Shown here: piece after piece, positions 53,381 through 58,202 of the stretch
Position numbering within the stretch: the first letter of the stretch is position 1
Layout: every line of letters starts with the position of its first letter
Sequence record: PP216085
Source of the DNA: Escherichia phage vB_EcoM_HZ_ZJUN4
Reading direction: 5' to 3' (one strand)
DNA length: 64,000 nucleotides
Position numbers and translations under genes: made by a program
Notes under the pieces: model-generated
Told to the model about the DNA's origin: nothing
Databases searched by the model: none
What the model saw: the letters and a program-made list of their open reading frames with translations, nothing else

Positions 53381-54037
53381 TTATTTAGCCCTTCCTAATA
53401 TTCTGGCCGCCTGAGAACATATTGATTCAAGGCGGTCATTACTTATATGATCATTTCTATACCAGTACATGGTTATTGTTCCAGCATAGATATTATCCAA
53501 ATTGAAATATGGACAACTGTACATGTAATTTATTTCAGGAGTAGGCTTTTTAGTTGGTAAAAAAGCAAATTTTGAGTCGGAATAATAATGACGTCCATTT
53601 AAATGAACTGTATATTCATCCATAGTTTTATCAACAGGATATCCTCCAAGTGATTTTTCACTTATTGTTGAAGGTAATTTTCCTTCATATGCTATAATAT
53701 CAACAAAATAGTTTAAGTTTTTAGGGCGGAAAGAATACACCGCACTAAAGTCTGCCTCAGATGATATGTGAACTATCTGGAGTTGTTCCAGGGCGACAGA
53801 TTCAAAGCGTGCATTTCTTTCCTTTTCAATAATTTCACTGTATGTTTCATACTTTGATTGCTTATAGTACTCAAAGAAACTATCTCCCCTATACCAAACA
53901 ATCGCCATTATAAACAAAAGAATTACGACAGCTACTCGGGAAGCAAGAACCTTCCCGGTAGCGTTATCTTTGAACAAGCGATCTAGAACACCCAACAGAA
54001 TATCAGAGGGCGAAAATGATATTCTAGGTGCTGCCAT
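53381..54037 (-). CDS. t: holin T
   Basis: 218 aa with single N-terminal TM helix and large periplasmic domain; recognised as T4 holin; convergent with asiA. Confidence 0.88.
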   Translation of the reverse strand: MAAPRISFSPSDILLGVLDRLFKDNATGKVLASRVAVVILLFIMAIVWYRGDSFFEYYKQSKYETYSEIIEKERNARFESVALEQLQIVHISSEADFSAVYSFRPKNLNYFVDIIAYEGKLPSTISEKSLGGYPVDKTMDEYTVHLNGRHYYSDSKFAFLPTKKPTPEINYMYSCPYFNLDNIYAGTITMYWYRNDHISNDRLESICSQAARILGRAK

Positions 54038-54067: not shown

Positions 54068-54844
54068 TTATACTCTTGGACCATATATTGCTCCAACGTT
54101 TTGCCATGTCGGTGTAGACCCTATGACGGCATAACCGGCAGCTCCGCCATCGTATTCATATCCTTGACCACGAATATTACATCTACCTCCCGCTGAACCT
54201 ACTTCACCGCCGTTTCCACCATTATAGATACCATTCACGGATCCTGAGCCAGGTGCAGAAATAGTACCGCCAGTCGCGCCTGATTGCATATCAATAGATC
54301 CGCCTGGCGCACCAAAAGGACGACCGCCACCGCCGCCAAAGGTCAATCTCATTTGTGAAAAAGGAGAATAATATCCGCCGCCACCGCCGCCGCCGCCGCC
54401 TGCAATAGCTCCGCCATTATTAATTCTTAGTCTCCCACCAATATCGTTTTGAATACAATGACCTCCAGCTGAGCCAGGACTATTGCTACCGCCATTACCT
54501 CCACGACCATACATCGTTACGCCATGTATATTTAACTGAACATATTCATTTGGTGTATCTCCGTACATGAAGAATAAAGGAACATCTTTAGAATATGATA
54601 CTAAATCTCCAGTGATATTAAACACTATAGGTGCACTACCTGCCTCAAAACATCTATCTCGGAACCATTGGCCATTGAAGTTATGGTCTGCTCCAAGCGT
54701 GTGAATTATTTCAACAGACCGCCCGTTCATATTACTCATCCAAAACGGAATACCCATTCTCAATCGTTGGGCGGCGCCGCCCATCCAATTTTGTCCTGTA
54801 TTAACTACTGCAGACGATCCTACCCACGGTCCTGTTACTGCCAT
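54068..54844 (-). CDS. 38: tail-fibre adhesin gp38, T2-type (glycine-rich motifs)
   Basis: Poly-Gly blocks ([23 protein letters not shown]) separating variable segments; ATG at 54844 after GGAGG (track start 54856 is TTG). Confidence 0.75.
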
Positions 54845-54856
54845 ATAAACCTCCAA

Positions 54857-54870
54857 GGGGCCGAAGCCCC
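54857..54870 (-). other. RNA hairpin GGGGCUUCGGCCCC between gene 37 stop and gene 38 SD
   Basis: Perfect 5-bp GC stem with UUCG loop on minus strand. Confidence 0.5.
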
Positions 54871-54875
54871 TCTTA

Positions 54876-57800
54876 TTATTTTAACAATGATTTAACTAAT
54901 GCTTTAAGTTCTTCAATTTCTGATTTAAGTTCCGCAATTTCTGCAGTATGCTCATTGATTGCAGCTGTATTTAAACCAATTACGCCGTTATAGTTCAAAC
55001 GAAGTAAAGCTTCACCATCAGGGTCACCTTCAACTAATTCTGGTAAAATAGCTTGAACTTCTTGAGCTATCAAACCGGCGTTAGGTTCCCATTTCTGATT
55101 GCCTTCTTCATCTAGGCCTCGCTTCTGCATATAAGTGTAACCGTTAATTTTAGAAAGCTTCTCAGAAGCATTTTCAAATTTAACAAGGTCTTTTTTAACA
55201 CGAATATCAGAGCGGACATAAACGTCACGAACAAATGTTGAATAGTTGTCATTCGCCTGAATCAAATGACCATGTGAAATAATAGCTTTGTCAACTTCAG
55301 TCCATAAAGCAGCACCAACAGACCACAATCCTGGGTGTTCTTGATGGAAAACCCCCCATGACGCAATATGTTGTCCGTTAGCAAACATGTTAATACGACC
55401 ATCACCGCCATGGACTAAACCAGTATCATTATCACCGATGGCGATAGATGCTCCGCCCCATACCGGAATTGTACCGACACCCAAGTTAACACCAGCGCGA
55501 AGACCAGCCGGAGCTTTAAAATCGCCATTAGCTTGAAACACAAATATTGCATTAGGATGACTGCTATCTCCACTTTCCGCAGAACCAACACGAATTACTG
55601 CATTTCCCCAAGTAGCATCTCCGCCCAATCTAATAATACCAAAATCTGCCTTTGTTGCATATCCTTCGTTAATGATTTGGCTTCTTCCTTTAATTATAGG
55701 CATATAACTATCTTTCGGAACAGATTCACCAAAGTCAACGAAGAATGGGGCTTCTGTTTGCCATTGATTACTATATCCGTGGCCTTGGGTAGCTGTCCAT
55801 TGTCTTCCGTTTAAATATAAACGATAAAAATTTAATGAAGCTGCAGTAGCTTGATTTTTAACATTAAAGTCAATATCGCCTACACTATTAAGAGTAATTC
55901 CTGCCGTAGTCTTAAAATTATAAAATGAAGCAGTGTCATCTGCCCCGCCTTTACCGATGTACCATGAATTCGCTCCACCTGATGTTCCAAGTAAATAACC
56001 AGAATCATTTTCATCGGCAGCAATGTTAATAGCGTCAGAGCCTCTTTTAACGATTAATTTGCCGGTCATCGTATCGCCTTCTTTAGCAACACGGGAGGCA
56101 ATAGCATCATGAAGGTTGGTTATATCACCAGCAGAGCTAAATAATTTCCAAATATCAGAGAAGATATTACCATTTCGAGCAATAGTAGCTTCGCCGCCAC
56201 CGACCTGTACGTTATCCGGGAAGTTAACTGTACCGTCCTGATTAAAACGAGACGTATGGCCTTGTGAACCATCTTCTTTCAGATGATGAATAACGAATGT
56301 ACCCGAATTAATTTCAGTACCTAAAGACCAAACAGCTTTGCCGTTTAAAAACTTCTGTTTAACAATAGGATAATATTTGCTTATAGCATCATCATCAATT
56401 TCCTGGAAAATAGGAGCTGCTTGAACATACTGAATGTCATAACCACCAGCGCCTGCGCCATGACCAGTAAATTTAATATAGCCGTTTGCTGCGAACGTAT
56501 TGTAACTTGATTGTAAATCTGGAATAGTAACTTTACCAGTATCTAAAGCCATACTAAACGGGCGAAGTGGACCGATATCACCATATTTACCTTCACCGTA
56601 AGCAGTTGGAATAATATGAAGACTTCCTTCTGAACGTCTAAAAATGGCTCCATAATCTGCGTTCCAAATACGAAGAGCATTCACTGCTCCAGATGAAATT
56701 TCGCCTGTTGTGTGAACTCCTCTATTTCCAGCAGTAACACCGGATGATTCAAATGAACCATTGACGTTCATTTCTACTTCGCCGGTAGTAAGTCTTTGAA
56801 TATAGCTCATCCAACTAGTTGCGTCAGAAATTTCCATGACATTTTTACGATTACCTACGCTAGGATTAGTAAACGTATTACCCCATACAGAAATTGTCAT
56901 ATTATCAACTGAACTGCTACCAGTTGTGTTACCTCTAAACATCAGCGTAGAAGCATTATTACGACCATCAATATTAACAGAACCACCAATAACGTCAATA
57001 TTACCTGGAGTGACTAACAAACCGCCGTGAGTATTAATGTTTGTGGTACCCTTACCGCGGAAATAATGATGATAATTACCACCTTGGTAATATCCTAAAA
57101 GAGTCTGACCGTCACCATACGCGTTATTATCATGGTAAGTAACAACAGTGGCTAATGCATAGTTTTCAGTTGGAGGAGTCGTTAAATCGGTTCCATTAGT
57201 AGAATATCCAGCTACAAATTTTCTTAGGCTAGTTGTTTCGCTAGGACTAAATAAAAATGTTTTCGTTCCATTATTAACGCTGAAATAATATCCGTCCTGA
57301 TGCCATTTTAGCCCGGTATCATTATCTCCAAGAGCAATTGAAGCAGTCCCTAGTTCAGAGTATCCTTTAGAGCCACCAGGAGTACCAACAGAAATAGAAT
57401 GGCCTGCTTTCAATCCACCGGACCAGGTAAACGACCAAAGATAGGCATCTAACCCGTCACCGGCGTACCAGGTTATCCCGTCGTTATCTTTAACTTCATG
57501 GAATATACCAGATCCTACGGCATTTCGCATAACACGGAGGTGGTTAATAGCCGTTTCGCTTTCTGCCAATGGAGTGTTATTTGCTAATGAAGATATATCA
57601 TAATCGCCCGTCTTCTTCCCATCTGTAATAACTTTATCGGTCAGAATTTGTGGAGACGAAATAGATTTCCACGCTGATACTTCAGGTGAAGTAAATAGTC
57701 CACTGCCTGAAAATGCATAGGTGCTTTCGCTTCCTGCAGCATAATCTTGAACCCTGATATTAAGTACTTGTGTAGTTAATCCATCATTAGCCGGGGCATA

Positions 57801-58202
57801 AATGATTCCGCGTTCGCGGCTATTGCCATCGAAAAAACGAACATGTGATGTACCTGAACTTTTTGTAATAAGTTCTCCGCCCTCAGTCATAATTTGCCCG
57901 GCGGCAATAATATCGCGAGTTACTCGAGCAATACCAGTTAAATTAAAATTACCTGTCTGAGTGAAGGTGCCATTTAAAGTATAATCACCAGTTTGATTAT
58001 AATTTCCTATATGAATAACATTCCCGTCAATACTACCGCCCTTAGCAAAACCCAGATCAATGATATTTCCTTGGTCATCTTTAGTAAAAAGTACGCGGTC
58101 TTTTAAGTTTATAGCCAATTCACCTTCGGCTAATACTGAAGCGGCAGGACGTGCTCCTGCAGTTTTGCTTCTTTTAAATTGTATTTGTTTTAAAGTAGCC
58201 AT
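54876..58202 (-). CDS. 37: long tail fibre distal subunit gp37
   Basis: 1108 aa, Gly/Thr/Ser/Asn-rich fibrous protein; [13 protein letters not shown] start; order 34-35-36-37-38. Confidence 0.88.

Follow-up and report, generated by a model that had tools for sequence, protein, structure and literature searches.

In most T4-like coliphages, gp38 is the main determinant of the host range. Gene 38 of Escherichia phage vB_EcoM_HZ_ZJUN4 therefore raises the questions of which kind of gp38 it encodes, which receptor this protein recognizes, and whether the runs of GGC-type triplets in the gene are simply the coding sequence of a glycine-rich protein or serve as sites of slippage and recombination between adhesin alleles. 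We addressed these questions in silico, using a stretch of 64,000 nucleotides of the phage DNA, referred to below as the window. Our analyses indicate that gene 38 very probably encodes a Tequatrovirus monomeric adhesin of the T6/Tsx type that caps the tip of gp37, in which the GGC runs code for polyglycine strands and repeat-mediated insertions and deletions are rare.

Gene 38 is located on the minus strand at 54068..54844. Its open reading frame, translation, Pfam hits and PDB matches identify it as the gene of the gp38 adhesin, consisting of 258 codons and a stop codon as claimed in the first-pass annotation. The ATG start codon is at 54844, and the Shine-Dalgarno sequence GGAGG (54850-54854) is found seven bases upstream of it. 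The program listing open reading frames proposed an alternative TTG start at 54856, which was rejected because this codon is inside the ribosome-binding region. NCBI lists the identical protein under WVX92832.1 ('tail fiber protein', Escherichia phage vB_EcoM_HZ_ZJUN4). The closest full-length DNA sequence in the phage collection searched is that of EPIMRB01 (94.5%), and the closest protein is that of KMB40 (98.8%); altogether, 864 phage records were positive by tblastn. A scan of the IMG/VR viral contigs with the gp38 protein yielded just 13 loci, not enough to survey a population.

Upstream of gene 38, also on the minus strand, lies gene 37 (54876..58202; stop codon at 54876-54878), which encodes the distal long-tail-fibre subunit of 1108 residues and was assigned by its open reading frame, Pfam and synteny with KMB40 and EPIMRB01. 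The gp37 protein contains Pfam matches to Gp34_trimer and, at residues 998-1057, to Peptidase_S74, the C-terminal intramolecular chaperone domain; a match to gp37_trimer is weak (0.0072) and under the Pfam cut-off. The conserved downstream neighbour of gene 38 is the holin gene t (53381..54037, minus strand; Pfam Phage_holin_T, 8e-118, and synteny). The same gene order, gp37 with an S74 domain, gp38 and holin t, is also present in KMB40, EPIMRB01, RB27 and T6, and gp37 is most probably the fibre that is capped by gp38.

The region between genes 37 and 38 contains two signals (54850..54871, minus strand; from sequence and RNA folding), a hairpin followed by the Shine-Dalgarno sequence. The hairpin, AGGGGCUUCGGCCCCU, is located at 54856-54871 on the minus strand, downstream of the gp37 stop codon and ahead of the gp38 Shine-Dalgarno sequence, and has a UUCG tetraloop and a predicted stem of 7 bp; a fold of 51 nt containing it has a z-score of just -1.7. 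Because it is not followed by a run of Us, it looks like an intercistronic stabilising hairpin and not like a terminator. No Rfam family reached its gathering score in a scan of the whole window (1-64000). The 3' end of gene 37 contains a 21-nt tandem repeat (2.0 copies) at 54903-54943 and a 12-nt repeat at 54880-54907, which encode a heptad-like C-terminal tail beyond the S74 chaperone domain. With respect to the annotation of homologues, gene 38 of IME537 (locus L017, 289-1077; 789 nt) and that of PST (locus L030, 294-1097; 804 nt) are annotated from upstream starts, T2 gp38 (MH751506, locus L023, 701-1489) is annotated as 'hypothetical protein', and several gp38 homologues carry the label 'distal long tail fiber assembly catalyst', thereby naming the function of the T4 protein.

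Two Pfam families were matched by gp38: GP38 (PF05268) at residues 45-258 (4e-71; 239.7 bits with a cut-off of 25) and Gp38_N (PF21721) at residues 1-39 (3e-21; 75.5 bits). No other Pfam family was matched. Sequence matches in the PDB were 9V85 (2e-80), which is the receptor-binding domain of PP01 gp38 (PMC12892980), and 6F45_D (2e-51; residues 1-255), which is S16 gp38 in the gp37-gp38 tip complex. An AlphaFold model of gp38, made from 36 homologues, had a mean pLDDT of 89.2. When this model was compared with the PDB using Foldseek, just the same two entries were retrieved at E <= 0.001: 9V85 (4e-26; target-normalised TM of 0.88) and 6F45_D (7e-22). The fold predicted in this way is a beta-helix plus a polyglycine-II sandwich. 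Pfam, the PDB sequence matches and Foldseek thus bear out the earlier proposal that gp38 is an adhesin and not the T4-type chaperone of 183 residues. The notion that gp38 is nevertheless a T4-type assembly chaperone absent from the virion can practically be dismissed: nothing was found in its favour, the 'assembly catalyst' labels in databases being a carry-over from the T4 annotation, whereas Pfam gives adhesin families alone, sequence and fold match solved adhesins, gp37 has a C-terminal S74 intramolecular chaperone domain as in gp38-capped fibres, and the adhesin has been described as having no relation to the version of gene 38 found in T4 (PMC3157838).

The N-terminal attachment segment of gp38 (Gp38_N, PF21721) comprises residues 1-39 (54728..54844, minus strand) and is predicted to dock on the gp37 tip. 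The C-terminal specificity domain, delimited by conservation, the model and the fold matches, comprises residues 113-258 (54071..54508, minus strand). Conservation profiles made from 118 and 36 sequences, with up to 117 homologues aligned, revealed the invariant stretches GRGG, GG..I.N.IG.RL.I.N.G.I.GGG, GGGGRP.G and a C-terminal W..G.IYG, with variable parts between them. Glycine makes up 63 of the 258 residues of gp38, and 34% of residues 113-258. In the specificity domain, five glycine-rich motifs alternate with four hypervariable segments (the polyglycine-II sandwich), and this is the layout of gp38 as published (PMC3157838). The alignments with up to 117 homologues hence agree with the earlier description of glycine-rich motifs separating variable segments, and instead of homology to the T4 chaperone without such an architecture, which had been named as the outcome speaking against an adhesin, we found adhesin families only and the motif layout present.

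The first-pass annotation had referred to gp38 as 'T2-type'. This is correct for the T2/T6-type adhesin class but not in the narrow sense, as gp38 is 87.6% identical to T6 gp38 (AAC61977) versus 48.8% to T2 gp38 (MH751506). The alignment with T2 and T6 gp38 that had been suggested for finding the hypervariable segments and predicting the receptor was performed, and identified the protein as T6-like with Tsx as the predicted receptor. That gp38 would be a T2-type adhesin in the narrow sense, using FadL or OmpF as its receptor, is highly improbable. It has the Pfam family and the overall architecture in common with T2 gp38, but the identity is just 48.8%. Of the 255 nt of the N-terminal domain, 126 are different, as are 25 of the 36 nt of hypervariable segment 2, and tblastn aligns residues 1-112 only (43.5%).

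Within the specificity domain (residues 113-258), the window protein does not differ from that of Pinarejo, and it differs by two residues from KMB40, by four from FL23, and by five from both T6 and RB27. The DNA of this domain is 94-95% identical to that of T6, FL23/FL44, RB14 and WilhelmHis, and hypervariable segments 1-3 are exactly those of FL23. Dependence on Tsx has been shown for T6 and T6-like RB phages (PMC3157838), for FL23 and FL44 (PMC12032242) and, with complementation, for WilhelmHis/Bas35 (PMC8594841). As the specificity domain is just four to five residues off those of Tsx-verified phages and has T6-type loops, the most likely receptor of ZJUN4 gp38, as predicted from these comparisons, is E. 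coli Tsx. No receptor data were found in the literature on vB_EcoM_HZ_ZJUN4.

PST illustrates how a different receptor could arise. Its gp38 is few residues off that of T6, yet PST also needs OmpA (PMC3157838), and therefore few substitutions in hypervariable segments can shift the specificity. At residues 229 and 244, ZJUN4 gp38 carries Y and T, as compared with S and A in T6 and PYps47T. Use of a different receptor instead of Tsx, or of several receptors such as OmpA plus Tsx in the case of PST, would be in line with Y229, D232, T244 and Q248 of ZJUN4 gp38, the corresponding residues of FL23 being S, N, A and I. However, hypervariable segments 1-3 are the same as those of the Tsx-dependent phage FL23 (PMC12032242), adhesins with this set of segments nearly all use Tsx (PMC3157838), and none of the PST-specific residues R164, I165 and I205 is present in ZJUN4 gp38. 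We therefore regard a receptor other than, or additional to, Tsx as quite unlikely.

The adhesin allele itself is composed of parts from two lineages. We compared window positions 54068-54844 with three loci (L021, L015 and L016). Gene 38 and its Pinarejo counterpart mismatch at 54 positions within nt 1-138 and at only 14 within nt 139-777; in the comparison with KMB40, nt 1-60 match throughout and mismatches cluster at nt 440-660. Judged from these alignments, gene 38 is a mosaic of a 5' end similar to KMB40/IME537 (nt 1-60) and a Pinarejo-like remainder (nt 139-777). Shigella phage A2 (locus L028) has a T2-like N-terminal domain joined to a T6-like hypervariable segment 2. According to the account in PMC3157838, which cites Tetart 1998, exchange of gp38 alleles takes place at or near the conserved glycine-rich motifs, and the mosaics of ZJUN4 and A2 fit such published module exchange. 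We propose that the conserved glycine-rich motifs may be homologous patches at which gp38 alleles recombine, and that the mosaic make-up of the allele may be due to this recombination.

Next, we consider the glycine codons themselves. Gly149-157, the polyglycine end of motif 2, is encoded at 54374..54400 on the minus strand by five GGC codons, GGT, two GGC codons and GGA. On the plus strand the run reads ccgccgccaccgccgccgccgccgcc and is located exactly at 54375-54400, as the first-pass annotation had it; Tandem Repeats Finder describes it as having a period of 3 and 8.7 copies, and it is the sole run of at least three GGC-type triplets within the 64-kb window. The second run that had been quoted, ccgccgccgccgcc at about 54335-54347, could not be confirmed, since this string occurs inside the first tract only. 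The actual second tract is ccgccaccgccgcc on the plus strand at 54324-54337. It belongs to the codons of Gly170-174 (54323..54337, minus strand; GGC GGC GGT GGC GGT), which form the polyglycine start of motif 3 (GGGGGRPFG). Between the two tracts the alignment places hypervariable segment 2 (residues 158-169; 54338..54373, minus strand). The AlphaFold model has strands at 157-162 and 165-170, and the segment is predicted to be a beta-hairpin receptor loop.

The GGC runs are the coding sequence of the polyglycine strands Gly149-157 and Gly170-174. At the protein level, the motif-3 tract has five glycines in 114 of the 115 homologues that have both tracts; in these 115 homologues the motif-2 tract contains four to nine glycines depending on the subtype, and the T6-like alleles examined all have nine, apart from that of PYps32T. 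Of the 60 best phage records, 58 have a specificity domain of the same length (441 nt). At the DNA level, in contrast, the wobble bases of the tracts differ between alleles having identical protein tracts (pooled counts of GGC 145, GGT 84, GGA 9 and GGG 0). Conservation of the (GGC)n run as DNA is ruled out by these differences; the wobble positions are free to vary, and thus there is no sign of DNA-level selection for the repeat. Accordingly, the pure (GGC)5 run is allele-specific: it is also present in PYps47T and PYps32T, and the runs of Pinarejo and NBG2 are equal in length but in another register.

Codon usage in gp38 was compared with that in 49 other long open reading frames of the window. 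GGC makes up 36.5% of the glycine codons in gp38 versus 13.5% in the other frames (Fisher p = 9e-6). The entire excess is in glycine codons that precede another glycine, of which 71% are GGC in gp38 versus 27% in the other frames (p = 4e-4); at the remaining glycine codons gp38 is ordinary (15% versus 13%). The other frames show a similar context effect: before glycine, GGC rises to 27% versus 13% elsewhere (p = 0.003), GGA drops to 13% versus 33% and GGG to 0 versus 6%, so that GGT and GGC are favoured. The pairs GGA-GGN and GGG-GGN generate Shine-Dalgarno-like GGAGG sequences or G homopolymers, and their avoidance is a published effect. The glycine-glycine codon pattern across the open reading frames of the window fits avoidance of GGAGG and G runs, and the bias towards GGC and GGT before glycine in gp38 may partly reflect this genome-wide avoidance of GGA-GGN and GGG-GGN. 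The 71% found in gp38 is above the genome-wide level of 27%, the extra preference being one for GGC over GGT. The regional G+C peak (up to 55% versus a window mean of 35%) is explained by the glycine content of 34%. A foreign origin of this G+C-rich stretch was ruled out, as the GC3 of non-glycine codons in the gp38 C-terminal domain (0.21) is below that of gp37 (0.25) and the holin (0.29).

An exact match search revealed that the two tracts share an in-frame direct repeat of 14 nt (GGCGGCGGTGGCGG on the coding strand; CCGCCACCGCCGCC on the plus strand, at 54324 and 54378). Copy 1 is in the motif-2 tract (54378..54391, minus strand) and copy 2 in the motif-3 tract (54324..54337, minus strand); they are spaced by 54 nt and flank hypervariable segment 2. 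If the two copies paired unequally, 54 nt (18 codons) would be gained or lost.

Exactly such a gain is seen in PYps47T (MT515755; gene 38 at 315-1151 of locus L031). Its region from motif 2 through segment 2 to motif 3 is base-identical to that of the window, except that it has an additional 54 nt (18 codons) from a tandem duplication of segment 2. The junction of this duplication is located inside the 14-nt repeat, which is present in the window as well. The gene of PYps32T (315-1106 of locus L032) has an insertion of 9 nt (GGT GGC GTC) in the motif-2 tract. The PYps32T and PYps47T genes differ solely by these indels, the former lacking the duplication and having the additional 9 nt, and therefore they represent two independent length mutations in one allele background. 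ZN18 (MN716856; 1501-2334 of locus L002) has an independent duplication of segment 2, of 51 nt, in another background. These three are the only length variants found among the isolate genomes; all three phages were isolated on Yersinia, are T6-like and have changes that are in frame. The original description of the PYps phages mentions a '15 amino acid insertion' but proposes no mechanism (PMC8762354).

The indels of PYps47T, ZN18 and PYps32T, together with the mosaic allele, support the earlier suggestion that the glycine-codon runs can mediate slippage or recombination, with the qualification that such events are rare. The same holds for the length polymorphism that had been proposed as a check: it exists among isolates, in the three variants mentioned, next to 58 of 60 records in which the length is unchanged. 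Repeat-mediated slippage and recombination are thus supported as a rare process that is secondary to the structural coding role of the tracts.

Alternatively, the glycine-codon repeats might be more than that, namely a hotspot selected at the DNA level, similar to a contingency locus, for changes in segment-2 copy number, allele swaps and host range. This reading is in agreement with the use of GGC before glycine (71% in gp38 versus 27% elsewhere), with the presence of both indel carriers PYps47T and PYps32T among the alleles having the purest (GGC)5 run, and with the occurrence of three independent length changes, every one in a phage isolated on Yersinia. In addition, PYps47T is viable and lyses 40.6% of Y. 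pseudotuberculosis strains, versus 61-68% for its near-identical relatives PYps14T, 15T and 32T (PMC8762354). On the other hand, alleles whose protein tracts are identical differ in their wobble bases, the repeat common to both tracts varies from 6 to 15 nt across alleles, 58 of 60 records show no change in domain length, and by our own estimate a 14-nt match between glycine runs built from two codons is not improbable. Moreover, the repeat unit is 3 nt and the changes are in frame, so that on/off switching does not occur, which also counts against a selected hotspot. Unlike a simple-sequence contingency locus, the tract has a fixed length in the T6-like alleles examined, except PYps32T. Altogether, we consider a selected hotspot unlikely; the shared 14-nt repeat looks like a by-product of glycine runs made of two codons and not like a conserved element.

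Candidates for the opposite event, loss of segment 2, were also encountered. The gp38 alleles P0007 and P0030, of 238 and 242 residues, have motif 2 fused to motif 3 and lack hypervariable segment 2. They come from locus L034 (Logan SRR30543803; 1501-2217, 33-1466) and loci L035 and L036 (ENA ERZ27235453, Logan SRR7533025). L034 also has an abnormally short gp37 of only 477 residues. As these alleles are known from short-read assemblies only, and in view of the short gp37 of L034, they are not firm evidence; they may represent true deletions, or else the assemblies may have collapsed at this point. In previous work by Trojet et al., no T6 lacking segment 2 could be obtained (PMC3157838). Two further candidate length variants were rejected: the additional length of P0133 (268 residues) is due to an upstream start call only, and HP3.2 differs in length because of a frameshift in the N-terminal domain, which has no connection with the tracts. 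In HP3.2 (OP978391, 'in vitro directed evolution'; locus L033, 401-1172), gene 38 is 11 nt shorter with the frameshift near codon 50, and the record annotates just a 5'-truncated CDS from 522. Either the sequence contains an error here, or the evolved phage has a disrupted attachment domain.

Taken together, homology and the model suggest the following arrangement for the T6-type adhesin. Gp38_N (residues 1-39) would dock on gp37, the stretch following it would form a small beta-helix together with the C-terminus, and the five glycine-rich motifs would build a polyglycine-II sandwich, with the four hypervariable loops protruding from it and touching the outer-membrane protein. The fold would hold the length of the polyglycine strands fixed, and slipped or unequal pairing may occasionally duplicate or delete the segment-2 loop, or add glycine codons.

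The gene is a catalogued and ordinary one, and the principle of slippage and recombination has been published before. Assigning the allele to the T6/Tsx type is useful when phages are chosen or engineered, although it is nothing new in kind. The modest new point is that the gp38 'insertions' of Yersinia phages are tandem duplications of segment 2 or expansions of glycine codons, with junctions in the glycine-codon tracts, and that the window carries the exact progenitor arrangement for the PYps47T event. A bolder extension, which we regard as doubtful, is that the tracts flanking segment 2 are a recurrent hotspot of in-frame duplication and deletion, at which purer GGC runs are the least stable and copy variants are viable and shift the host range. 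If so, T6-type phages would gain a fast and reversible way of changing their adhesin beyond point mutations and allele swaps, and variants in segment-2 copy number would shift the host range, for example among Yersinia pseudotuberculosis strains. If indels do change the host range, recoded tracts could stabilise therapeutic phages, and tracts that are kept could speed up host-range training.

Finally, ZJUN4 gp38 can be compared with known systems. The T4-type gp38 chaperone has 183 residues, and its partner gp37 bears its own receptor-binding tip; ZJUN4 gp38 does not belong to this class. S16 and PP01 gp38, for which a polyglycine-II sandwich with protruding receptor loops has been described (PMC12892980), resemble ZJUN4 gp38 in having a beta-helix, a polyglycine-II sandwich and loops between the glycine-rich motifs. 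However, they bind OmpC and their hypervariable loops are unlike those of ZJUN4 gp38; the identities in the Foldseek structure alignments are 44% for S16 and 66-67% for PP01. T2 gp38 has the same Pfam family and the same layout of motifs and segments, but its N-terminal domain and hypervariable segments are different and its receptor is FadL/OmpF (PMC3157838). The T6-like group (T6, RB27, RB14, FL23/FL44, WilhelmHis/Bas35, Pinarejo and KMB40) has the family, architecture, gene position and tracts of nine and five glycines of ZJUN4 gp38, whose N-terminal attachment segment is two residues shorter than the MAVVGVPGWIGSS type of T6. As to changes in variable segments, the account in PMC3157838 of the T4 gp37 duplications (Tetart 1996) and of motif recombination (Tetart 1998) also involves short conserved motifs that flank variable receptor segments. 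In that account, the T4 host-range duplications are in gp37 and not in gp38, and the gp38 exchanges are swaps between alleles and not tandem duplications of segment 2. The segment-2 duplications of PYps47T and ZN18 fit the scheme of conserved motifs flanking variable segments, as far as it is presented there.
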